Assembly: GCA_963835065.1 (NCBI GenBank) | Contig: CAWIEK010000044.1 | Coordinates: 448,001-512,000 of the forward strand | Reading direction: 5' to 3' | DNA length: 64,000 nucleotides | Origin: an uncultured Chthonomonadaceae bacterium | GTDB taxonomy: Bacteria; Armatimonadota; Chthonomonadetes; Chthonomonadales; Chthonomonadaceae | Shown here: positions 18,427 through 56,033 of the stretch, piece by piece | Layout: each line of letters opens with the position of its first letter | Numbering within the stretch: position 1 is the first letter of the stretch | Made by a program: the position numbers and the translations under genes | Notes under the pieces: generated by a model | Database searches by the model: none | What the model was told of the DNA's origin: nothing | The model's input: only the letters and a program-made list of their open reading frames with translations

Positions 18427-20889
18427 ATGGAATTTTTACGTATCATGCGCGGCGCGAAGACTCTGCTGCCGCTTTGCCTACTTGCCCTGCCCGACGTTGG
18501 CGCACAGGCAATGGACAAGATTGCGCCCGACGCAGGCAAGTTTATCGTGACATATCAGGAAAACGAGATTATCACGGAAACCTTCAAGAGTGATGCGGAC
18601 GGCGGTTCTGAAACAGAAGCGGAAGCCAAATCGGGCGGCGTCACGCAGAAGTTTCATATCTCCTTGAAGGCCAGGCAGGGGCGCGTGTCGAAGATTGTTA
18701 CGGAAGCCAAACCGGGCGGGAAATTCACGCTGGAGGTCAACGGCGCGATTGGCAAATTGACAACCGATCTTGCGCCCAAAGCAAAGGAGGTGAAACTGCC
18801 CGCCAACCTTTACCCGTTTGCCACTATCGCCGCGCCGCATTTACTCGCCAATGTCGTGGCCGCGTATGACAAGGGCAAGGGTGGCGCGCAGACATTCGAT
18901 TTCGTGTACGCCAATGTACTCGGCCCGCAGGGAGTAATTCAGGGCAAACTGACGCTCACCAGCCAGGGAGCCAAACCCCGGCAGATTGGCGGCAAAACCG
19001 TGCCTGTTGTCCGCTACGTTGTCGGCCTGCCCACCCCTGTCGGCGAACAGGAAATGGAACTGGCGACGGACACGAATGGGCGCGTACTGATGTTAAGCAT
19101 GGCGACGCAAAAGATATATGCCGCGCGAGACGGCTATCAGGAACTGACGCAGCCCGATACGCCCACCGACCCGACGCTTTCCAAACCCACGCACGAAGTA
19201 AAAAAAGAAACCGTCAAGATCGCCATGCGCGATGGGGTGAAACTGACGGCAGACGTGTATCGTCCTGCTGAAGACGGCAAATACCCCGTGATTTTGCAGC
19301 GCTCGTGCTACGGGCGGACCAAAGCGCTGGAAGCCACGAGTTACGCCAAACGCGGTTATGTGTTCGTGTCGCAGGATGTGCGCGGCAAGTTCGATTCCGA
19401 AGGCGCGTGGAAGCCGTTCGTCAACGAAGCCCGTGACGGCTATGATTCCGTGGAGTGGTGCGCTTCGCAGCCCTGGTCAACGGGGAATGTCGGCATGATC
19501 GGCGGATCGTACCTGGGGTTTGTGCAATGGGCAGCCGCCCGTGAAAACCCGCCGCACCTCAAATGCCTGATCCCCATTGTGTCGCCGCCCGACCCGTTTT
19601 TCAACGTTCCCTACGCTTTCGGCGCGTTCCTGCTGCAATCCGATACGTGGTGGACGGCGATTGTGGAGGGCAAGGGCATGAACAGCATACCCACCTACAG
19701 CAGTCTCGCGCCGTTCAAAACCCTGCCCGTTTCCGATGTGGACAAAGCCGTGTTCGGACACCACGTTGACTTTTTCCAGGAGTGGCTGCGGCATCCCACC
19801 AATGACGCTTACTGGCAGCAGGTGAATTTCAATGACCGCATGAAAACCATGCCGGATATTCCCGCCCTGCATGTTTCGGGCTGGTTCGATGGCGACGGCA
19901 TCGGCACGAAACGCAATTATGCGGCGATGGCGGCGGCGCACCCCAATCAGCGCTTGATTTACGGCCCCTGGTCCCACGCGGTCAACACAAGCACCAAAAT
20001 CGGGACGTTGAACTTCGGACCGCAGTCCGCGCGCGATCTGGACACGCTATACCTGCGCTGGTTCGACCACTGGCTCAAGGGCGTAGACAACGGCGTGGAC
20101 AGGGAAAAGCCGGTGGAAGCGTTTCTCATGGGACACAACGAGTGGCGGCAGTTTACCGCCTGGCCGCCCAAAGAAGCGACCGAAACACGCTGGTACTTCC
20201 ACTCGGCAGGCCACGCCAATGCCGACAAAAGCGACGGCAAATTGTCCCTGAGCAAGCCTTCCGCAGAGGAAAAGCCCGATCATTTCACTTATGACCCCGC
20301 CCACCCCTACATCCCCGGCGACGAGGAAACAGCCGTTAAGGCAGACGCAAACGCTAAAAACGTCAAGAACATTCAAAACGCCAAAACCAGCCAAAAGGAC
20401 AGTACCACCCGAAAGGATGAAGCCACAACGGGAGATAGTGACGCGCACATTCTGACGTACACAACCGATGCGCTTGAAAAGGAAGTGATCGTCGCCGGGC
20501 CGATTGAGGTACATCTCGCCGCTTCCACTTCCGCCAGAGATACGGACTGGTTCGCCATGCTCCAGGACATCGGGCCGGACGGCAAGGCGCTGAACTTATG
20601 CCAGGGCATTATTCGCGCCCGCTTCCGCAATGGCTTCGAAAAGGCCGTGCTGCTCACTCCCGGTGAAATCGCGGATTACACCCTTGACCTGTGGGCCTTG
20701 GGTAACGTGTTCCAAAAAGGACACAAAATCCGGGTGATTGCCAGTTCGTCCTGCTTCCCGCTCTATGACCGCAATCTCAACACGGGCGACAACAATGGCA
20801 CAACAACGAAAATGGTCATCGCCCATCAAACCGTTCTGCACGACGACGCGCATTTGTCGTACCTGTCGCTGCCGACGCTGGCAGAGTAG
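18427..20889 (+). CDS. Secreted CocE/NonD-family serine hydrolase (peptidase S15) with N-terminal extension
   Basis: MRDGVKL, QDVRG, GGSYLG nucleophile, GWFD, GPWSH and a PepX-C-like tail; signal peptide. Confidence 0.92.
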   Translation: MEFLRIMRGAKTLLPLCLLALPDVGAQAMDKIAPDAGKFIVTYQENEIITETFKSDADGGSETEAEAKSGGVTQKFHISLKARQGRVSKIVTEAKPGGKFTLEVNGAIGKLTTDLAPKAKEVKLPANLYPFATIAAPHLLANVVAAYDKGKGGAQTFDFVYANVLGPQGVIQGKLTLTSQGAKPRQIGGKTVPVVRYVVGLPTPVGEQEMELATDTNGRVLMLSMATQKIYAARDGYQELTQPDTPTDPTLSKPTHEVKKETVKIAMRDGVKLTADVYRPAEDGKYPVILQRSCYGRTKALEATSYAKRGYVFVSQDVRGKFDSEGAWKPFVNEARDGYDSVEWCASQPWSTGNVGMIGGSYLGFVQWAAARENPPHLKCLIPIVSPPDPFFNVPYAFGAFLLQSDTWWTAIVEGKGMNSIPTYSSLAPFKTLPVSDVDKAVFGHHVDFFQEWLRHPTNDAYWQQVNFNDRMKTMPDIPALHVSGWFDGDGIGTKRNYAAMAAAHPNQRLIYGPWSHAVNTSTKIGTLNFGPQSARDLDTLYLRWFDHWLKGVDNGVDREKPVEAFLMGHNEWRQFTAWPPKEATETRWYFHSAGHANADKSDGKLSLSKPSAEEKPDHFTYDPAHPYIPGDEETAVKADANAKNVKNIQNAKTSQKDSTTRKDEATTGDSDAHILTYTTDALEKEVIVAGPIEVHLAASTSARDTDWFAMLQDIGPDGKALNLCQGIIRARFRNGFEKAVLLTPGEIADYTLDLWALGNVFQKGHKIRVIASSSCFPLYDRNLNTGDNNGTTTKMVIAHQTVLHDDAHLSYLSLPTLAE

Positions 20890-21012
20890 GGAGTAGAGGG
20901 TAGGGAGTGGGGAGTAGGGAAATACGCTGTCTGCCACTTTCCTGCTGCATAAGAGAAGTAGCCACAGGCTTTTCCTACTCCCCACTCCCTACCCTCTACT
21001 CCCTACCCCTAC
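20883..21012. repeat. Paired heptamer arrays GGGAGTA(n) ... TACTCCC(n)
   Basis: AGAGTAGGGAGTAGAGGGTAGGGAGTGGGGAGTAGG is mirrored by CCTACTCCCCACTCCCTACCCTCTACTCCCTACCC. Confidence 0.88.
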
Positions 21013-21017
21013 TTCCG

Positions 21018-28473: not shown

Positions 28474-28624
28474 TCAAGAACCGGCGCGGATTGACTCGTT
28501 GAATTGCAGGGCCAAGCGGAAAAACGCGGCTTTCTGCGTAACTATGCTCAACACCCTGCGTCTGATGGTGTATACCCGCGCCTGAACATTGCAGGCATGG
28601 AAACTGCCGAAGGAGTCAATCTTA

Positions 28625-29449
28625 ATGGGGCAAACTCGCCGCCGCGCTTTTACTCTGATTGAACTGCTCGTCGTGATAGCGATCATAGCAATCCTTGCCG
28701 CTATCCTCTTTCCCGTCTTTGCCCAGGCCCGCGCTGCCGCCCGCAAAGCCGCCTGTATGAGCAATGAAAAGCAAATTGCCACCGCCATCCTGATGTACTT
28801 TCAGGACTACGATGAACGTACGCCACGCGCCGTCAACAACGCTTCCGCCAGCCCCCATCTTGCCATTCCGCTTACACCCGCTCTGATTGGCGATAACGCC
28901 TTTTCCAGCGGCGATGCGAATGCAGGGCGTCCAGAGGGGTTTCTCTATGCCTACATCAAGAACGATGCATTGTGGCGCTGTCCGCAAGACCCTGTAATCT
29001 ATAACGCCAAAACGCTCAATACCAACAACTCGCTCGGTATTGCCAACGCCACCAGTTATCATCTCAGCCTTTATCTGACCGGCTCACAAGTAGACGGCGT
29101 GAACGAAACCACGTCGGGGGATGGAACCACGATTGCCGCCATTCCGCGCGTTGCCGAAACTATTTTGGCCCGCGATGGAGATGCCAATGACGGCACGAAC
29201 ATCGAGAACAACACAGCCATTGGCGGCGCCTTGGTTGGCGAACAACTCTATACTCGCCACAGTGACCACACGCAGGCTATTCGGCACAGCGGCAAAGGCA
29301 ACTACATCATGCTCGATGGACACATCAAGACACTTGTTCCCGATGCGGTCAGCCCGATGGAGACTGACGACAACCCTGACAAGCCCTGCCCCGGCTGCCC
29401 GGATCAGGTCAACCCCAATGCGCAGGCGTTTTGGAACATTGTTCAGTAG
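28625..29449 (+). CDS. Prepilin-type cleavage/methylation DUF1559 (H-X9-DG) protein
   Basis: [47 protein letters not shown]. Confidence 0.93.
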
Positions 29450-30951: not shown

Positions 30952-31887
30952 ATGGCAGGAATGGTTTACAAGATTTGCCACACTACATCGGGGAACAGGG
31001 AACAGGGAACAGAAGCCGCATTCCCAATCGAAAATCGAACATCGAAAATCGGCAATCCCGCCCCTCAACTTGGGCGTCCGCTTGCGGACTACAACCGGGC
31101 GTTCACCCTGATCGAACTGCTCGTCGTTATCGCAATCATCTCCATACTGGCGGCGATCTTATTTCCCGTCTTTGCGCAGGCGCGGGAGTCGGCGAGGCAG
31201 GCGTCGTGCGCCAGCAACATGAAGCAGATCGGGTACGCGGCGCGGATGTACAGTCAGGATTACGACGAATTTTGGGTTCCCGCGTATTCGCAGGGACCGG
31301 GGCCGAACGGCTCCAACATCCAGCCCTGGATCGGGTTTGACAACAACAACGCGGTCAGCAACTCGCCCATCGGCGGCGACATGACCCAGCCCGCCACGCA
31401 TGAACCGCATCCCGGCCTGCTCGATCCCTACATCAAAAACGCGCAAATAAAAAAATGCCCGGACGTGCCCGGTTCGTGGCAAATGGCGCTCGCCCTCAAC
31501 ATCTTCAACGTGTATCTCGATTCGGATTACTACACTGCCAATCCTGCCGCGAAAGGCAATGAGTTCGGACCTTCCTATCGTTCCAGTCAGACTGACCCCG
31601 TAACCGGGCAGGAAATGCCATTGGCCGCGCATGATTCGGAGATTGATCAGCCGTCCACGACCCTTGTCGCCTGGGAACACCAAAATCCCGCCCCCGAATG
31701 TAACTTCCTCCAATCTCCCAACTGGCTCATCTCCCCGCCGGAAGGCCCGTACCGCGAGCATTTCCATCTGCTGCACCGCAGCGGCGCAACCTGCTTGTGG
31801 TGCGACAGCCATGTCAAGCACGTCATTTACGACACGCTCAAGCGCCCCTGGTTCTCCTGCCGCAAAGACATCTATCCCGGTGGGTAG
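30952..31887 (+). CDS. Prepilin-type cleavage/methylation DUF1559 protein with a long repeat-derived leader
   Basis: [59 protein letters not shown]. Confidence 0.9.
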
Positions 31888-32244: not shown

Positions 32245-33327
32245 ATGCTGAACACCACGCCGATTACACCCGGAAAATTGTACGATTGCCTGCACACGCT
32301 GTATCAACTGCGACTGCCCGCGTATCTGGCCGGGCCTCCCGGTATCGGCAAATCCGCCGTAATCCGCCAGTACGCGCAGGAAAACGGCCTGCAATTGGTC
32401 ACGCTGATGCTGTCGCAGATCGAGCCTTCGGACGTGCGCGGCCTGCCGTTTCTGGACAAAGAGGCGGGACGAACGCGCTGGCTGATCCCCGAATTCTATC
32501 CCGACAGCGACTCGAACTCGCGCGGCATTTTGTTCCTGGACGAACTGGCGAATGCCGAACCCCGCGTACAGGTAGCCGCGTACCAACTGCTGCTGGACCG
32601 CAAGGTGGGCGAGTACACGCTGCCGTCTGGTTGGGTGTGCTTTGCGGCGGGCAACCGTCTGGAAGACAACGCCAACGTCTACGAAATGTCGTCCGCCCTT
32701 GCGGACCGGCTCGTCTTTTTTAATGTTTCCTGCGAAGCCCGCGACTGGCTGGCCTGGGCGCAAAACAACGACATCGCGCCCGAAGTCCTCGCCTTCATTC
32801 AGGTAAAGCCGGACTTTTTGAACGGCAATCAGATGCAGCAATCCGCGGATCAGGTGATTGTTCCCACGCCCCGCAGTTGGGAGCGCGTGTCGCAAATCGT
32901 CAAAGCGGAAAACAACCCGGAAGTGCGACAATTCCTGCTTTCGGGTGTGATTGGGGAAGCGGCAACCGTAGAGTTTGTTCACGTTCTGGAAGAGATACGG
33001 GAACTGCCGCCGATGGAAAAACTGTTTCGCCAATCCCCCGAAGAAGCGCGGCGCTTGTTTCCCAAAAGCGTGGCGGGTTTGTACGGCTTGGCCTACAGCG
33101 TGACCGCGTATTGCAATGACATGGAAACGTTCCAAAAAGGCATCTTGATTTTCAATGAACTCGATCAGATAAGCCGTGAACTGCCCGGCGCGGAAATCCA
33201 AACGCTGGCAATGGAACTCCTCATGGAGAAGGCCCATAAACTCAGCCTGGATCGAAAACTAACGTTTTCGCCGGAGTACAGCGCGTACCGCAAAAAGGGG
33301 CAGCAGGTATCCCACCTGGAATTGTAG
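32245..33327 (+). CDS. MoxR-like AAA+ ATPase
   Basis: Walker A GPPGIGKS, Walker B ILFLDE, AAGNR, SALADR and TPRSWE motifs. Confidence 0.93.
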   Translation: MLNTTPITPGKLYDCLHTLYQLRLPAYLAGPPGIGKSAVIRQYAQENGLQLVTLMLSQIEPSDVRGLPFLDKEAGRTRWLIPEFYPDSDSNSRGILFLDELANAEPRVQVAAYQLLLDRKVGEYTLPSGWVCFAAGNRLEDNANVYEMSSALADRLVFFNVSCEARDWLAWAQNNDIAPEVLAFIQVKPDFLNGNQMQQSADQVIVPTPRSWERVSQIVKAENNPEVRQFLLSGVIGEAATVEFVHVLEEIRELPPMEKLFRQSPEEARRLFPKSVAGLYGLAYSVTAYCNDMETFQKGILIFNELDQISRELPGAEIQTLAMELLMEKAHKLSLDRKLTFSPEYSAYRKKGQQVSHLEL

Positions 33328-33330
33328 GCA

Positions 33331-34542
33331 GTGTACAACATGGAATCCATGAACATTCTGGAACAAGAAGATACCGTGAAAAGGATACTGCGCTACGCCG
33401 TATCGCAAAGTCCCGGTTTTGCGGCGATTGCCTTTTGGTGTCCCTGGACAATTGACAACAAGGCGTCGTGGGTTGCCTGCACCAATGGCAAGACCATTCG
33501 CTTCGGACAGCGTTTTTTCACCGATTACAGCCCCAAAGAGCAGGTGGCGATTCTGGTGCATGAGATACTTCATGTAGCGCTGCGCCATATTCCCCGCATG
33601 AAAAAAGGCCATTTTGACGGCCTGGTATGGAATCTGGCGACGGATGCGATTATCAATGAAGCCGTCAGTAAGATGGTATGGCTGACACTGCCTACGGATG
33701 GCGTTCGACTGGACAAACTGCTGACCCCGCAGGAACTGCAGACGACGCCCGCGCACCAGTGGACAAGCGAAAGCCTGTACGCGCACCTGATTGAAGACAA
33801 GGAGCGCCTGCTGGAACTGCTTGCCGATTATTTTGGCGACCTGATTCTGGTTCCCGACAAGGACGGTTTGTTCAGCAGCGCGGACTTGCCACTGGAAGAT
33901 AAAGTGTGGAAGGAGCGGCTGACGCGGGCGCAGGCAGGGGATCGTCCCGGCGGCCTGATGCGCGAAGTCAGCCATGATTTTCCCGAAGAAAAAGTGTCGT
34001 GGGAGAAACTGCTGCGCCGCCTGATGACACAGCCGCTTTTGCCGCAAACCCGGCCCAACTGGAACCGTCCGAGTCGGCGCACTCTGGCGCTTGGCGGCGA
34101 TTATTGGGAACCGGGCAACCGCCCCCGCGAAGGGCTGCAAATGGCGGGCGTCGTGGTGGACACGTCGGGCAGTATCGGCGATGCCCTGCTGACGCGCTTC
34201 GCGGCGGAAATTCAGGGCATCCAGCAGCGGACGGGCTGCCACATCTATCTTATCAGCGCGGACGCCGCCGTTCAATCGGAGCAGGTGATCCGCAACGACG
34301 GCAAATCGTTCAAAGAAAAGGTAAAGCAGGGCAAAGTACAGTTCAAAGGCGGCGGCGGCACGGACTTTTACCCGGCCTTGCAGCGCATGAAGGAGAAAAA
34401 AGTCCGCGTGTGCGTATACTTGACGGACCTGATGGGGAATTTCGGAGACGAAACCAATTACCCGTTCCCGATCCTCTGGGCCAGCACGATGAAAAACATG
34501 CAAGCGCCGTTCGGCAAAACCATCTACATTGACGAGGAATAG
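33331..34542 (+). CDS. DUF2201-type protein: zincin metallopeptidase-like domain plus vWA domain
   Basis: HEILH, WNLATDAIIN, MIDAS VDTSGS, GGGGTDF and YLTD motifs. Confidence 0.92.
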   Translation: MYNMESMNILEQEDTVKRILRYAVSQSPGFAAIAFWCPWTIDNKASWVACTNGKTIRFGQRFFTDYSPKEQVAILVHEILHVALRHIPRMKKGHFDGLVWNLATDAIINEAVSKMVWLTLPTDGVRLDKLLTPQELQTTPAHQWTSESLYAHLIEDKERLLELLADYFGDLILVPDKDGLFSSADLPLEDKVWKERLTRAQAGDRPGGLMREVSHDFPEEKVSWEKLLRRLMTQPLLPQTRPNWNRPSRRTLALGGDYWEPGNRPREGLQMAGVVVDTSGSIGDALLTRFAAEIQGIQQRTGCHIYLISADAAVQSEQVIRNDGKSFKEKVKQGKVQFKGGGGTDFYPALQRMKEKKVRVCVYLTDLMGNFGDETNYPFPILWASTMKNMQAPFGKTIYIDEE

Positions 34543-34558
34543 GCGACAGGAGCAAACC

Positions 34559-35602
34559 ATGAGATTTTTTCGCAAACCTAAGCCTGAACCGCCGCCCCCG
34601 GCTCCACCGTCCCTGTACTTTGCCGGGTGGGGCTTTGACGACCGCGAGGATGAGAATGTCTATCGGGATGAGGGAGCGGATGTGCTTGTCGTGGAAGCGG
34701 CAGGGCAGCCGTTCGTTTTGCGAAAGATGAACACGTGTGTTTGCTTCCGGCGGCGCGAGGACAAAGACGAGCGCGCGTGTTTATTTTTGCTGAACAAGAC
34801 GCTGCACAAATGGCGGGATGAAATCAAGAAGTTTGCGCCCGAAGAGTTTGTGGAAGAATATGCAAAGCAGGCGTATGGACGGCTTTTCGTGCATGTGGCG
34901 GATTGTATGCGGGAACATCAGTGCGTGTATTTGGGCTTTGCGCCCGATGGAACCGGCTTCAGCCTCGACTATACCGAGGAGCGGCTGGTAGATTTTCGCT
35001 GGCAAGGCGTGACGGCAATGACATGGCCGGAACTACTTGCCGCCGACCCCGAAGCCGCGCGGCCTTTCTGCAAAACCGTTTTCGATACGCTGGTACACCC
35101 GCGCCTGACCAATTCGTACATTGACCCCGCAGCGCTGAAGGAAATACCGCATGAGTTTGTCTGCGGTTCCGAAGCGCAATTGTGCCGCCTGACAACGCTC
35201 ATTGTACAAACGGAGCCGGGTCTATTCGATGATAATGAGGAACCTGTCACCGTCACCTACCGGGCGCAAACACCAACCAAGCGGGCGTACATGATGAAGG
35301 TGGAACGAGAAAGCGCCCAAAACTATTACAGCGAACGTATTACGGAAAATTTAGGACGGCTGCAATCGTTGTGCGATCTCGCTTTGCGCTTAAACACCTT
35401 TACAGGCGTGAAATGGAAAACATGGATGGAGAAGCCCAACCGTTTAGGCCATTTTATGAAGCAAGTTCAGCAGGTGCAGATTAAGGTACACCCGCCATCC
35501 GCCCACGAACGCGCCGAGTCGCTGTTGGGTCTGGCGGATTGGCTGGAAGGCAAGGTGCGCGAGGAAAAGCGGTTGCGGCTGTTGGGCGTGGAGGAGGAGT
35601 AG
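34559..35602 (+). CDS. Hypothetical protein, PSAHER paralog 1
   Basis: ATG after AGGAG; ends PPSAHERAESLLGLADWLEGKVRE; aligns with the two downstream genes. Confidence 0.8.
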   Translation: MRFFRKPKPEPPPPAPPSLYFAGWGFDDREDENVYRDEGADVLVVEAAGQPFVLRKMNTCVCFRRREDKDERACLFLLNKTLHKWRDEIKKFAPEEFVEEYAKQAYGRLFVHVADCMREHQCVYLGFAPDGTGFSLDYTEERLVDFRWQGVTAMTWPELLAADPEAARPFCKTVFDTLVHPRLTNSYIDPAALKEIPHEFVCGSEAQLCRLTTLIVQTEPGLFDDNEEPVTVTYRAQTPTKRAYMMKVERESAQNYYSERITENLGRLQSLCDLALRLNTFTGVKWKTWMEKPNRLGHFMKQVQQVQIKVHPPSAHERAESLLGLADWLEGKVREEKRLRLLGVEEE

Positions 35603-35675
35603 GTATTCGGGTGTTCAGTGTCAGGTGTTCGGTATTGGGTGTTTGGCGTTTGGTGTTGGGCAGGAGAGGACAGCG

Positions 35676-36884
35676 ATGTCGGATTGGAATTTATGGAAAC
35701 GTATTCGAGGCTTGTTGAGCGGGAAAACGGCTGTGCCCGCTGCGCAGCCACGCAAGACGCAAGCGGAAATCACACCTCGAAGGAAGTGGAAACGCCGCCA
35801 ACTGAGAGAACAGCAATACAGGAAGCAGCAAAAGCGGAAACCGTGCCGCGTTCCCATGCGGAAACGGCGGGCAGGCAACAGAAGCCGACGCAATTTACAT
35901 TTGCCAAACCGTCCCTGTACTTTTCCGGGTGGGGCTATGATGAGCGCAATGGCAAGAACCCCTATTGCAGTGAGAAGGGCAAGAATGCTGCGCTGATGAC
36001 CGTGAGTGATCAAACCTTTGTGGCGCGTATAATAAATCGGCATGTGGTGTTCCGTGAAAGTGGGGACAGGGACGAGCGTTCCGCTCTGTTTATTTCCCAG
36101 ATTACGGAACGTGGATGGCCTTACAAAGTGACCGATATACCGGAAGCGGAGTTTGCCCGCATTGTAAGACAGTGGGAGTACGGACGCTGCCTGCTGTATG
36201 TTGCCGACTTCATGCAGCCAGGGCAGTGCGCGTATCTTGGCTTTGCCCCGGACGGCAGAGGCTTCGCATCGGATGAGTATCACATCAGTATAGCGTGGTT
36301 CCAGTGGCGGGAGGCGACAACGCAGCCCTGGGCGGAACTCCTGACTGCCGATCCCGAACAACTGCGGCCTTTGTGCCAGACCCTGTTCGATACGCAAATC
36401 AATCCCCGCAGTGGAAACCCGTACATTGATCCCGCCAGCCTGACGGACATTCCGCACCGGTTTCTGAGCGGTTCCGAGGACGAACTGCGCCGCCTGACCC
36501 TTGCCATCGTGCAGACGGACCCTGATGTATTTGCGAACAGCCTGGAACCCGTCACCATCACGTACCGGGCGCAAACGCCGACCAAACGCGCCGGCACGAC
36601 CCGGATGCTGCAAGGCAAACAGCAATTGGCCGGGCGGACGCATACCCTCGCTATGTGACCTGGCGTTGCGCCTGAACACGTTTGTCGGCCTCGCCTGGAA
36701 GCCGCGCCCGCCCTATACACAGCCGAACCGCCTGGGTCATTTCGACAAGCAGATACACCGGATAATCGTCACCGCGCAGCCACCCTCCGCCCACGAACGC
36801 GCCGAATCGCTTCTCATCCTTGCCGATTGGCTGGAAGGCAAAGTGCGCGAACCGAAACGCTTGCGCTGGCTTGGGATAGATTAG
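35676..36884 (+). CDS. Hypothetical protein, PSAHER paralog 2; apparent frameshifts near 35777 and 36632
   Basis: Shares PSLYF.GWG.D, YLGFAPDG, TYRAQTPTKRA, SLCDLALRLNTF and PPSAHERAE with paralog 1. Pieces lie in ORFs 35625, 35618 and 36501. Confidence 0.75.
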
Positions 36885-37010
36885 GGGTTGGTGTTCAGGT
36901 GTTCGGTATTCGGGTGTTCAGGCAGGAGTATTAGGACACGATTACTGCCAATGTATTGTCTGAATACCTGAACACCGAACACCTGAATACCCGATTTTGA
37001 AGGAATGAGA

Positions 37011-38140
37011 ATGAGCGTTAAGCAAGCGTATGACTTTCCGTTGCCGGGGTTCTGGTCCAATCATGCCGTCGCGGAACACGTCTGCGACATAGACGGACGG
37101 CGGTATTTGCTGCGGCAACTGGATGAATTTATGCTTTTCCGAATGGCAGAGCGCAACTGCGTGGAGCATACGTTTTTTGTGCCTTATCGCCGTTCGGCTC
37201 ATGCGCAGGGGCGACGCTCTTGCCAAACCGGGCGTGAGTATTCGGGACGGCAGCAGCGTACCCCCGCTTCGACAGGCATTGACGCCGCCCGTTTACTCGC
37301 AAAAGATGTTTGCCGAGCAAATAGCCAGTGGCGAACACGGACGAGTGGCGCTGTACTCCTGCCCCGAAGCGCGCGATTGCAGCCCGCTCCTGTTCTTCCG
37401 GCAGGATGGCACGGGCTTTTTCCCGGACTTCCATACGGCCAACGGCTACAGCGCTCACGAGCCGACAGAGCAAGTGGATTTTGTGTGGCATGAAAACGCG
37501 CAGGGCATTGCGAATGGCGCGGACATTCTCAGGGCGGACTGGCCGCAAATGGAAGCCTTGTGCCACGAGGTTTTCATTGGTCAGGTCTGGCCGCGCATGA
37601 AAGACCCCTTTGTGAGTTTCGCCGACACGCCCGACGCGCCGCTCACATGGAAATGTGGCTCGCAGCAGGAATTGTTTCGCCTCACGCCTTGCATCTTTCA
37701 CACGCATCCCGGCGAGTGGGCGGAGTTGGAGGCGCATTTCGGCTCGTCCGTGGTTGAATGGAAACCACAGCATCCCCGTACATTATCAAGCGGAAATGGC
37801 AGAGCATCGGGCGGAACCTTAGAGAAATGGCCGAAGCGCATACATAATCTCTGCGCAATTGCCTTGGGGCAGAATAGCGAGAGGCCAATGGCCCAAACGG
37901 ATACACGCCCTGTGCCTGCTGGCCTTTCAGCACAACATGTTTACGGGGTACAAATGGGAGTACCATCGCTATCATGGCAGAACGCGCCGACAGGGTTATA
38001 AAGCAAACCGGCTCATACAAAGTTGCATTGTCGCGCCCCCCTCCGCCCACGAACGCGCCGAAGCCCTGCTCACGCTCTGGGACTGGCTGGAAGATAAAGT
38101 AACAGAGGAGCAGCGGCGGGCCTACTTGGGAGTAAACTAA
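37011..38140 (+). CDS. Hypothetical protein, divergent PSAHER paralog 3; apparent frameshifts near 37175 and 37884
   Basis: DGTGF, CGSQQELFRLT, HNMFTGYKW and PPSAHERAEALLTLWDWLEDKV. Pieces lie in ORFs 37005, 37123 and 37859. Confidence 0.7.
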
Positions 38141-38222: not shown

Positions 38223-38960
38223 TCAGGGGAACAGCAGGCGGCGGAGTTCGGCGGGGGTGTCGCATAAGTGGGTGGGAGATTCGGCTTGCAGGCGGGCGCG
38301 TCCGGCGGCTCCCCACGTAACCCCGATGGATTGAACCCCGGCGGCATGAGCGGCCTGCATGTCGTGAACCGTGTCGCCGATGTACACGGCAGTGGCGGCA
38401 TGTTCGGCGGGGATGTTCAAGCGGGACAGGGCGAGGCGCATGCCTTCCGGGTCGGGCTTGGGATGCGTTACATCGTCGGCGGTGATAGCGAAGTCTACAT
38501 ATTCGGCGATGTGCAGGCGCGGAAGCGTGTTGTCGAGTTCTTCCTGATTTTTGGAGGTGACAAGCGCGGTGGGCAGTCCGCGCTGCTTGCCTTCGATAAG
38601 AATAGCGGTCACGTCTTCCAGAATACGCTCTTGGTTGCGGTTGGCCTCATAGAAGGCGATAAAATCCGCCATAATCGCCCGCTCGTCCACGCCAAACGCT
38701 TCCAATTCCCCGAACACGCGGATTTGCTTATACAGCGGCGTTCCAATCAGGGCGCGAATGTCCTCCGGGGGCAATGTGCGCCCAAAGTAGCGCTTGTACA
38801 CAAAATCCAGCGAAGCCACAATCAGCGCAGTGGTGTCAATCAGCGTACCGTCAATGTCCCAGAGGAGGGTAGACGGTAGACGGTAGACGGTAGACGGTAG
38901 CGCCAACCCGGTTGCCTTCTCGATATTCTGGCTCTTCTTATTGTTCACAGGCATACTCAT
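38223..38960 (-). CDS. HAD-family hydrolase (PpaX/phosphoglycolate phosphatase-like)
   Basis: WDIDGTLIDT, VTSK, KPDP and YIGDTVHD motifs. Confidence 0.9.
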   Translation of the reverse strand: MSMPVNNKKSQNIEKATGLALPSTVYRLPSTLLWDIDGTLIDTTALIVASLDFVYKRYFGRTLPPEDIRALIGTPLYKQIRVFGELEAFGVDERAIMADFIAFYEANRNQERILEDVTAILIEGKQRGLPTALVTSKNQEELDNTLPRLHIAEYVDFAITADDVTHPKPDPEGMRLALSRLNIPAEHAATAVYIGDTVHDMQAAHAAGVQSIGVTWGAAGRARLQAESPTHLCDTPAELRRLLFP

Positions 38961-39051
38961 TAGTAGATGTTGCTGCCGTCTACCGTCTACAGCGCGGGCA
39001 GTGTACAACCGGAGCAATGTAAAAGTTGCTGTCTACCGTCTACCGTCTACC
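38868..39051. repeat. Paired heptamer arrays GGTAGAC(n) ... GTCTACC(n)
   Basis: GGTAGAC x4+ at 38868-38900 (inside the HAD gene) and GTCTACC units at about 38975-38990 and 39030-39051; same family at 63361-63475. Confidence 0.88.
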
Positions 39052-42928: not shown

Positions 42929-45389
42929 TCAGGTTGTCTCACCTTCGGGTGAAGCCGTTGCAGCCATGCGGCGCGGAATGGCGTTCTGGTAAACTTCGGT
43001 TAATTGTGTCACGGGTATGTCAATAACATCTTGCGGACCGAGCGCGATACGCAGGTTTTCGCCGCCGACTGTGCCGATCCAATCGGCGCGGATGCCTAAT
43101 TGTTCCGCCCGGGTTTTGAGTTTGGCAAACTGCTTTTCGGTGCGAATGGAAACAACGGCGCGGCCCTGCGCTTCGCCGAAGAGGGTGGCGGAAAGCGGCA
43201 GCGCGTTCTCGTCCTCGTTTTTCTTCAGCAATACCAGTGCGCCCTGCTTGCTCAACATGCACTTTTCGGCAAGGCATACGGCCAGCCCGCCATCCGAAAC
43301 ATCGTGGCAGCTTGCGAACATGCCCTCGCCGATGCACTCCAGCAGCAGGGTATGCAGCCGTTTTTCGCCTTCCAGATCAATGTGGGGTGGGATACCCGCT
43401 TCGACGCCGTGAATAACGCTCAGGTACTCACTGCCGCCCAAGCCGCCGTTCGGGTCGTCATAGGCGGTCAGGAGAACAATCGTGTCGCCCTCAGCGTCCG
43501 GGCGAAACGCGGCCTGGGTCCGCTTGTTCACATCATCGAGAATGCCTAACATGCCGATGGTCGGGGTCGGGAAGATGGGGCCGTAATCGGGCGTTTCATT
43601 GTAAAAGCTGACGTTGCCGGACACGACGGGCGTACCGAAAACTTCCGTTGCCTTTGCGATGCCTTCCACGCTGCGCCGGAACTGCCAGAAGCCGGTCGGT
43701 TTTTCGGGATTGGCGAAATTGAGGTTGTCCGTCACCGCTGCGGGACGCGCCCCCACGCAGGCCACATTGCGCGCGGCTTCGGCAACCGCGATCTGCCCGC
43801 CGACATAGGGATCAAGGTAGCCATACCGCCCGTTGCCGTCAATCTTGACCGCAATGCCCTTCTGACTGCCCCGTATGCGCAAAATCGCCGCGTCCGAACC
43901 CGGCATAGCAACCGTCAGCGTCTGCACCATGCTGTCGTACTGCTCGGTCACATAGTTCTTGCTGGCGATATTCGGCGCATCAAGTAGTAATCGAAGTACA
44001 TCATCGTAATCCATGATGCCGACAAGCGCGTTTCGGTCTGTATTGGTAAGTTTCGGCCAATCATATGCCATCAGCATGTAAATTAGCATCCGCAATCGGA
44101 TCATGAGGAGGCAAAATACCTTCACTAGTCATCTTCTCTGTCAACTCTCGTATTTCCGCTTTGCGCTCGTCTGTCGTCTCTGCCCGAAGTTGACGAATGG
44201 TTTGTCCTGGTTCCGGCAGAGTAGAAAAGTTGAACGCCTGCACCTGCTTGATGTAGTCCGGCTCTTCGGTTTCGAGGTAGTAGGTGGGACATTCGTTGGT
44301 AAGCGCGTTGGCGGGCACTTCCGCAACCACTACGCCGTTGTCTTTGACGCGAACCAGTTTGTCATCCGTCACAAAGCCGATAACCGCCGCGTTCAAGCCC
44401 CATTTTTTGAACACGTCCATCACGCGGTTTTCGGTTCCCGCCTGCGCGATGCACAACATGCGCTCCTGCGACTCGGACAGCATGATTTCATACGGCGTCA
44501 TATCGGCTTCGCGGAGCGGCACTTTGCGCACATCTATTTCCATGCCGTTGCCCGCTTTGGAAGCCGTTTCGCACGTGGAGCAGGTCAGACCCGCCGCGCC
44601 CATGTCCTGTATGCCGACCACAAAGCCGGTATCGAGCGCTTCCAATGTGGCTTCGATGAGCAGTTTTTCCATGAATGGATCGCCCATCTGCACATTGGGG
44701 CGCTTGCTTTCGCTGTCCGGGCCGAGTTCCACAGCTGCGAACGTCGCGCCGTGGATGCCGTCCTTGCCCGTGCTGCTGCCGACATAGATAACCGGATTGC
44801 CCACGCCCTTCGCCGCCGCGCTCGCCACTTTGCCTAATTCCACGACGCCCACCGACATAGCGTTGACAAGCGGGTTGCCGCTATAGCACGGATGAAAGTT
44901 GATTTCGCCCGCCACCGTGGGAACGCCAACGGAATTACCATAACTGCTGATACCGGCGACGGCGTGTTCAAACAGGTAGCGGTTGCGGGGATCGTCAAGG
45001 GGACCGAAGCGGAGGGAGTTGAGGTTGGCGATTGGACGCGCGCCCATCGTGAAGATGTCGCGCAGGATGCCGCCCACGCCGGTTGCCGCGCCCTGAAACG
45101 GCTCTACGGCGCTTGGGTGGTTGTGCGATTCGATTTTGAAGCAGATGCCGAGTTTGTCATCAAGCGGAATCACGCCCGCGTTTTCCAGCGCGCCCTGCTC
45201 CTGCGCTTCCTTGTAGTTCTTGAACAGGGCCAGCACGGGGCGGGAATACTTGTAGCCGCAGTGTTCCGACCACATCACGCTGAACATGCCCAGTTCCGTG
45301 ATTGTCGGCTCGCGCTTCAGCGTGTCCAGCACCTGTTGGTACTCCCGCTCGTTCAAGCCCATTTCGCGCGCCATCTCGGGTGTAATCAA
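42929..45389 (-). CDS. purL: Phosphoribosylformylglycinamidine synthase subunit PurL with internal insertion; apparent +1 frameshift near 44083
   Basis: MWSEHC, KIESHNHPS, QDMGAAG, LSESQERM, VVSGNVSFYNE and HDVSDGG motifs; TTG start after GGAG. Confidence 0.95.
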
Positions 45390-45404
45390 AAGTCGCTCCG
45401 GGAA

Positions 45405-45533
45405 GTAGTCAGTAGCCAGTAGCCAGTAGTCAGTAGTCAGTAGGTCGAAGCCGAAAGTTTGCAGCATACTCTGCAATTTTTGTAGAAAAGAAGAGGGGTT
45501 TCTACTGACTACTGACTACTGGCTACTGACTAC
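45405..45533. repeat. Paired heptamer arrays AGTAGTC/AGTAGCC(n) ... GACTACT(n)
   Basis: Inverted arrays in the purL leader region. Confidence 0.88.
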
Positions 45534-45583
45534 TTTCCAATAGTATAGCCTTTGGGAGCGCGTATGGTCAACCCGGTGACGTG

Positions 45584-55912: not shown

Positions 55913-56033
55913 AGTTGATAGTTGATAGTTGATAGTAGTCTGCTTGCGAACGCGCGCTCTGCCATGTTCAGCAATCAGAACACTCAACACGAGGTACTAT
56001 CAACTATCAACTATCAACTATCAACTATCAACT
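55913..56033. repeat. Paired heptamer arrays TTGATAG(n) ... CTATCAA(n)
   Basis: Same family as 9424-9547, 15223-15252, 16582-16611, 30625-30646 and 38177-38207. Confidence 0.9.

Follow-up and report, generated by a model that had tools for sequence, protein, structure and literature searches.

The window analysed here is a 64,000-nucleotide stretch from an uncultured Chthonomonadaceae bacterium of the phylum Armatimonadota (assembly GCA_963835065.1, contig CAWIEK010000044.1, positions 448,001 to 512,000 of the forward strand), referred to below as contig C44 of genome G000. It carries an operon in which genes for an AAA+ ATPase and for a zincin-like protein fused to a von Willebrand factor A (vWA) domain are followed by three paralogs of a family called PSAHER here, after a motif in its shared C terminus. 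We conclude that the ATPase-protease pair, known but unstudied, has a real third component in the undescribed PSAHER family and that this family forms an unusually large repertoire; we infer its mechanism. A genuine functional link between the family and the pair is highly probable. At a probability of roughly 0.5, the PSAHER proteins are exchangeable adaptors of an ATP-driven remodelling or proteolysis machine of the phage N4 gp24/gp25 type. The AAA + DUF2201 pair occurs widely in phages and bacteria. In the PSAHER family it gains a partner that is specific to one clade, has multiplied heavily, can be modelled with confidence, and exists in a small natural minimal form. This raises the testable question of whether one ATP-driven protease draws its specificity from a swappable partner set. 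If so, bacteria would have a new design for directing remodelling or degradation at chosen targets. It might serve as an immune repertoire and would be a candidate for a programmable tool.

Linkage of the PSAHER family to one ATPase clade

We surveyed 401 genomes of the phylum and defined the close ATPase clade by scores of at least 380 bits, the next best score being 201. The large genome scans scored just 4 to 5 candidates per genome, and weak PSAHER copies may be missed. The ATPase clade was found in 13 of the 401 genomes and the close vWA clade in the same 13, whole in 12 and in two pieces at a contig end in the other. All 13 carried the PSAHER family, compared to 1 of the 45 genomes with other ATPase clades only, and every genome with more than two PSAHER matches carried the ATPase clade. 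The ATPase clade, the vWA clade, and the PSAHER family were all absent from G139 (93% complete); among its sampled congeners, the ATPase was present in 11 of 12 and the family in 12 of 12.

The order ATPase-vWA-PSAHER was found in G000, G001, G002, and the metagenome locus L034. Behind the pair there are five intact paralogs in G002 and two in G001, and L034 has one with a second 5 kb away. The genus g88 belongs to another family of the same phylum. Its 13 genomes had 42, 41, 37, 35, 33, 21, 19, 18, 7, 2, 2, 1, and 0 PSAHER matches, which are not exact copy numbers, corresponding to one clade ATPase/vWA pair against 1 to about 40 diverged PSAHER copies per genome. In each of the 11 g88 genomes that carry the clade, a PSAHER gene directly adjoins the ATPase gene, whether downstream, upstream, or in divergent orientation. 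This includes genomes that have just 1 or 2 matches, and a rough estimate of chance adjacency is at most 0.02 per genome. In G118 and G163, the vWA gene lies megabases from the ATPase gene, yet a PSAHER gene is still beside the ATPase. The displaced vWA gene itself adjoins a PSAHER copy in G118 and G171. In a FastTree tree, the ATPase-adjacent copies fall into at least four subfamilies that are retained as orthologues across species; the tree has long branches, its group table omits ungrouped rows, and the subfamilies were taken from the tree itself.

One branch of this tree holds a divergent subgroup with an odd amino acid composition (P0081, P0104, P0106, P0109, and P0120). This subgroup and the ATPase P0142, which is 51% identical to the window ATPase, may have originated outside the phylum; a plasmid search for P0106 gave no match. 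A gene whose product appears to be secreted and carries the motifs YFTGHGS and VMVQC, apparently caspase/legumain-like from its sequence, occurs in g88 between or beside the ATPase and vWA genes (L097 4394-5914, L099 11118-12650, L100 11316-14520, L101 9654-11141, L106 3383-5080, and L107 9884-11467), often followed by a metallophosphoesterase-like gene.

The ATPase and the zincin-vWA protein

The original prediction of a MoxR-like ATPase and a DUF2201 protein with HEILH and DTSGS motifs was correct, as both genes are intact, with Pfam matches above cut-off, and they lie 3 bases apart. The operon contains no toxin gene. The coordinates are given in Table 1.

Table 1. Features of the operon and of the repeats between its paralogs
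Feature	Position	Strand	Basis
AAA+ ATPase (MoxR/N4 gp24-like), 360 amino acids	32245..33327	+	Pfam AAA, AAA_5; phrog_1297; clade-conserved C-terminal helical region
Zincin-like HExxH domain fused to vWA, complete metal ion-dependent adhesion site (MIDAS) (DUF2201_N + DUF2201), ~400 amino acids	33331..34542	+	PF13203, PF09967, phrog_1314
PSAHER-family paralog 1, intact, 347 amino acids, two predicted alpha/beta domains	34559..35602	+	Open frame; G002 orthologue
PSAHER-family paralog 2, frameshifted twice in assembly	35676..36884	+	Alignment of intact homologue P0017
PSAHER-family paralog 3, frameshifted twice in assembly	37005..38140	+	Intact homologue P0060; contigs of runs X1, X2
GGTRTTC-type short tandem array; genome-wide intergenic repeat	35602..35657	.	
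Inverted pair, GGTGTTCA / GAACACC short tandem arrays; genome-wide intergenic repeat	36890..36991	.	

The ATPase matched the Pfam models AAA (35.2 bits) and AAA_5 (32.9 bits), and it matched phrog_1297 with an E value of 2e-80 over profile positions 7-343 of 356. Walker A (GPPGIGKS), Walker B (DE), N137, and R155 were invariant in 28 homologues, and sensor 1 and the arginine finger are intact alongside the Walker motifs. The P-loop starts at residue 30, with no tryptophan ahead of it in the window protein. The zincin-vWA protein matched PF13203 (E 6e-33), PF09967 (E 5e-25), and phrog_1314 (E 9e-58). H74, H78, H83, D102, and D274-T-S-G-S278 were invariant in 27 homologues, and E75, T341, and D363 were present in at least 90% of them. 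The vWA domain (Pfam span 274-401 of 403) forms the end of the protein in all 14 aligned close homologues. From these residues, the protein is a putative metalloprotease.

The two genes match both profiles of the N4 gp24/gp25-type pair (phrog_1297 and phrog_1314, with PF13203 and PF09967) and are adjacent, and by sequence the window pair is a member of this type. In phage N4, gp24 (hypothetical) stands beside gp25 (pfam13203) in Table 3 of PMC6992544. The window pair differs in being chromosomal, in forming a distinct clade, and in being tied to a third family that is absent from phage records and viral contigs. Our literature search found no functional study of an N4 gp24/gp25-type pair. A tblastn search matched the ATPase to 855 of 50,697 phage records, with identities of up to about 35% among the ten matches listed. 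G000 carries a second, distant AAA/DUF2201 pair that is near-identical on contigs C57 (18311-21393) and C58 (17944-21016; loci L029 and L030). Its proteins are 35% and 27% identical to the operon pair, with a vWA partner of about 670 amino acids. No PSAHER genes were found near this second pair, or at the 17 loci of other DUF2201 matches within flanks of 1.5 kb.

Homology and integrity of the paralogs

The window was predicted to hold three co-directional homologous genes. The order and the homology are borne out, but only paralog 1 is an open frame. The predicted C-terminal motif PPSAHERAE.LL.L.DWLE.KV was indeed found at the end of all three. The N termini vary, as had been noted, yet they are homologous too, with 47-48% identity between paralogs 1 and 2 across residues 5-248. 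The homology spans the length of the proteins and two folded domains, with the C-terminal helices as the most conserved portion. Paralog 1 has a 68% identical orthologue in G002. In the comparison with G002, the ratio of nonsynonymous to synonymous change (dN/dS) was 0.15 and 0.32 for the paralogs, 0.15 being the value for paralog 1, indicating purifying selection, with dS close to saturation. The dN values were 0.23-0.37 for the paralogs and 0.07 for the ATPase, a 3- to 5-fold faster change of amino acid sites.

Paralog 2 is spread over three frames, with breaks near 35735-35786 and near 36634, and the intact homologue P0017 aligns to it in three segments (frames 1/3/1) with 76-94% identity. 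Paralog 3 has an extra base near 37201 and 58-61 extra bases near 37860-37922, and the intact P0060 aligns to it in three frames. In contigs of runs X1 and X2 (about 93-95% alike), the base at 37201 is absent and the second site is shorter by 61 and 58 bases. The word share of any sequencing run searched in connection with these breaks was at most 0.29, and no RNA data set was among the runs listed as sharing words. The lesion density is four in 2.5 kb, compared to one doubtful case among 26 other open reading frame matches, many of which are antisense shadows of the same genes. However, purL in the same window is also split, into overlapping minus-strand frames (42929-44125 and 44061-45476) with AIRS domains in each, probably by a frameshift or assembly error in this housekeeping gene. 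The breaks in paralogs 2 and 3 may reflect decay or assembly error. Programmed frameshifting of these paralogs is not favored, because the relatives carry open frames. The stretch of paralog 3 between the two helices of the C-terminal domain (37737-37922) varies between the close relatives X1 and X2 and the window, both in length and in sequence, and it matches the variable middle of the short copies described below.

The PSAHER family: members, fold, and conservation

A phmmer search of 1.84 billion representatives gave 96 PSAHER matches, two of which were repetitive and were discarded as spurious, and a word-index search with a wide profile added one further named protein. The prediction that the family is uncharacterized was upheld, with no match in Pfam, NCBIfam, PHROGs, PADLOC, or PDB. 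Pfam searches of 35 and 86 members gave stray matches only (E 0.003 or worse), with none to an immunity family and none to the VMAP-C, iSTAND, FtsH, or beta-propeller models. NCBIfam and PHROGs gave no match to the paralogs, PDB sequences gave nothing better than one match at E 0.18, and the ESM Atlas gave no usable match, its recognition being low. No effector, enzyme, or signaling domain was fused to any of the members scanned. PSAHER copies were absent from the viral contigs (alignment A1), from phage records, and from the surroundings of 17 distant viral ATPase loci. A literature search found no description of the family or of a DUF2201 three-part system, although supplementary material beyond that search, such as the PMC7159879 source data, may be relevant.

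AlphaFold2 modelled paralog 1 as two alpha/beta domains with a predicted local distance difference test (pLDDT) score of 91, and the C-terminal domain alone with a pLDDT of 95. In this model, the PSAHER motif opens a helix (residues 315-329) inside the C-terminal domain. The motif is therefore not a free tail, and the original idea of the helix as a free docking tag was not supported; in three of the 11 genomes (G118, G163, and G171), moreover, the ATPase-proximal copy has a degenerate box. Foldseek found no fold match at E 0.001 in the viral and PDB sets. In the VIA wide fold search, the best Z score was 5.0 for the whole model and 5.7 for the C-terminal domain; values below 8 possibly reflect a mere common arrangement, and the lack of a match is no proof of a new fold. 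The best rows for the C-terminal domain were EsaG (Z 5.7, root mean square deviation [rmsd] 5.5, 89 residues aligned) and BH3703 (Z 4.1, rmsd 5.1, 88 aligned), with human ZFYVE9 (Z 5.4, rmsd 3.0, 78 aligned) tied with EsaG.

The commonest residue had a frequency of 0.52 at residues 311-342 and of 0.22-0.28 elsewhere, the former value being inflated because those rows that came from loci were picked by a C-terminal profile. H316 and E320 were present in 86% and 91% of 86 rows, respectively, and no conserved catalytic set was found beyond H316/E317/E320. A hydrophobic 19-mer of at least 1.6 occurred in 0 of 86 members, which indicates that there is no membrane-like segment, and the proteins are likely cytoplasmic.

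Five short copies elsewhere in G000 consist of the C-terminal domain only; their ends are nearly constant, whereas their middle cannot be aligned. Around the short copies, a second family of small genes clusters with ankyrin genes (L023 8668-10164, L025 6759-7247, L026 6771-7808, and L027 7638-9814). Its members likewise have constant ends, MEPKTGKRIVSK at the start and PLTRANTADLP...LVRAS at the end, around a variable hydrophobic middle, and its C-terminal part had 17 tblastn matches in G000. Head-to-tail fusions of two PSAHER units were also found (P0037, P0038, and L108 7791-9731, with 699, 726, and 647 amino acids), and they may hint at members acting as dimers.

Comparison with known systems

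Membership in one of the published ternary conflict systems was not supported by gene order, vWA architecture, or the ATPase N terminus. In the portions of Kaur et al. 2020 (PMC7159879) drawn on here, the VMAP, iSTAND, FtsH, and beta-propeller ternary systems resemble the PSAHER set in combining an AAA+ protein, a MIDAS-intact vWA protein, and a faster-evolving third part. The most conserved piece of that third part is likewise an alpha+beta domain at the C terminus, whose fold is unassigned and which has conserved polar residues. However, the same portions describe a strict VMAP-MoxR-vWA order, whereas here the order is ATPase-vWA-third part, with other orders in g88. They also describe vWA proteins with 1-11 variable C-terminal effector domains and a MoxR N-terminal extension with WxhapG and PsWRxa motifs, whereas the window vWA protein has an N-terminal zincin domain and nothing C-terminal, and its ATPase does not have the extension. 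Each VMAP locus described there has one cognate set, while here one machine stands against many partners, and the PSAHER third part is without the effector-associated N-terminal domains. The PSAHER set would thus work like a VMAP ternary system but is not one. The third gene of the AAA/DUF3150/DUF2201 cassette was also considered and rejected, as no PSAHER member among the 35 and 86 matched DUF3150 in Pfam.

CbbQ/CbbO and NorQ/NorD are further cellular MoxR-vWA remodelling pairs. RavA/ViaA, CoxD/CoxE, and midasin, as treated in section 8 of PMC7159879, also join a ring ATPase to a MIDAS adaptor acting on a partner protein. By analogy, the mode of action of the window pair is likely that of these cellular pairs, although each of those in section 8 serves one enzyme complex, whereas the window pair has a fused protease-like domain and a large paralog family.

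Proposed mechanism and alternatives

In the mechanism that we propose, the ATPase, the zincin-vWA protein, and the PSAHER family would be a linked three-part set. The ATPase would form a hexameric ring, the vWA partner would grip a peptide through its MIDAS, and the ATP cycle would remodel the bound protein, by analogy with the known MoxR-vWA pairs, for which section 8 of PMC7159879 describes the same division of labor between vWA protein and ring. PSAHER adaptors would use their conserved C-terminal domain to dock on the ATPase, and different adaptors would bring different targets to the remodelling and cutting machine. Gene linkage favors docking on the ATPase over docking on the vWA protein.

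The proposal of an undescribed three-part system stands in large part, in that the family is tied to one AAA/DUF2201 clade and the adjacency survives rearrangement, but 6 of the 19 family-positive genomes lack the ATPase clade. This result and the following ones weigh against the adaptor reading. Of these six genomes, G101, G143, G043, and G058 are 95-97% complete with one detected copy each, and the two others are fragmented; the four named ones show that the family can persist without the ATPase clade. The linkage was sampled in three lineages only, whose kin are not independent, and most PSAHER copies are distant from the operon, including six in G000. Two of the three window copies are broken, and the copies nearest the ATPase in the three g88 genomes named above have a degenerate C-terminal box. 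S314-x-x-E317 is of the Ser-x-x-Glu type, a textbook helix N-cap, so that the motif may be partly structural. The present data also fit a client equally well as an adaptor. In favor of the adaptor reading, the ATPase was modelled with paralog 1, because linkage favors that pair, and the complex scored 0.50 (best of three controls, 0.00), which was graded as weak support. A score in this range, however, is wrong more often than it is right if the pairing was not already likely. Of 157 solved complexes, 116 reach the scoring mark, as do 2 of 215 mismatches; 18 of the 157 and both mismatches do so with scores of 0.60 or less. The runs agree in at least 78% of contacts, with a partner pLDDT of at least 73. 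The model thus gives weak support for a direct ATPase-PSAHER contact and shifts the odds slightly.

The PSAHER proteins could instead be clients, held inactive or unassembled until the ATPase-vWA machine remodels or cleaves them and then acting as sensors or effectors. We regard this as possible but doubtful. The same linkage data and the weak predicted contact fit it, the MoxR-vWA pair has been proposed to restructure a third component (PMC7159879, section 8), and the conserved acidic E320 could serve as a MIDAS ligand. However, a client of this kind sits poorly with the scanned members, which carry no fused effector, enzyme, or signaling domain and no catalytic set beyond H316/E317/E320, and with orphan copies that persist without the machine. 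A repertoire of immunity proteins or decoys that bind foreign toxins or phage proteins unaided, with the ATPase-protease at most clearing the complexes, is unlikely. DUF600 immunity proteins occur as paralogs in tandem arrays. The PSAHER family also forms long tandem arrays of highly diverged cytoplasmic paralogs, cassettes of small variable genes surround its short copies, orphan copies exist, and the C-terminal domain weakly resembles the DUF600 proteins EsaG and BH3703 (rmsd above 5), though tied with ZFYVE9. Against this, the Z scores are below 8, the members match neither DUF600 in sequence nor any Pfam immunity family, and they have an extra N-terminal domain and C-terminal helices. The family is linked to an ATPase rather than to a toxin, the operon having no toxin gene, and its subfamilies are conserved as orthologues across species rather than rapidly replaced. 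The adaptor role was ranked above both the client and the immunity repertoire because there is no effector domain and the loops vary around a constant core.

It is also improbable, more so than an immunity repertoire, that there is no functional link and that a lineage-specific expanding gene has been carried along with the ATPase-vWA pair from one ancestral island. The three sampled lineages, the dispersal of most copies, the six genomes with the family alone, and the two broken window copies would fit such a history. It does not readily account for the adjacency in 11 of 11 genomes, in three orientations, with different subfamilies and even where the vWA gene has moved, nor for the joint absence in G139 or the presence of the clade in all genomes with more than two matches.

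For the adaptors, a conflict role is plausible given how far they have expanded and diverged. The portion of 10.64898/2026.09.08.750141 drawn on here links an actinobacterial MoxR-vWA pathway to the sensing of epibionts. The suggested anti-phage function received no backing from PADLOC 2.0 (2023 library), in which 8 frames searched at E values up to 0.1 matched 0 families. We tentatively consider a bolder form of the adaptor reading, in which a single machine might be programmed by as many as about 40 interchangeable receptors with a common C-terminal docking box, to recognize and destroy diverse foreign or self proteins. Such a repertoire could, just as speculatively, follow in bacteria the adaptor logic of F-box or SOCS-box proteins, but without ubiquitin. 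If true, the N4 gp24/gp25-type pair would be a general platform for programmable proteolysis.

Repeats and neighboring genes

Octamer arrays are present between the paralogs, as predicted, at 35602-35657, 36890-36922, and 36962-36991, but they are not specific to the system. Intergenic short tandem arrays of this kind occur all along the window (115 rows), and single 15-mers from the arrays occur 41-241 times in the genome, one of them 150 times and another 49 times. In G002, three of the five paralogs overlap their neighbor, with no array between them. As genome-wide intergenic repeats that are missing where G002 paralogs overlap, the arrays were ruled out as parts of the system. Across the window, the intergenic arrays consist of many 7- to 8-mer units, often as inverted pairs 50-100 bases apart (for example, at 20884-21013, 38868-39051, 45404-45534, and 55913-56033). 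Upstream of the operon, 28589-29449 and 30952-31887 on the plus strand are genes with prepilin-type N-terminal methylation signals. The product of the latter has N_methyl and DUF1559 matches. Genes of this type are common in the lineage and unlinked to the operon in relatives.

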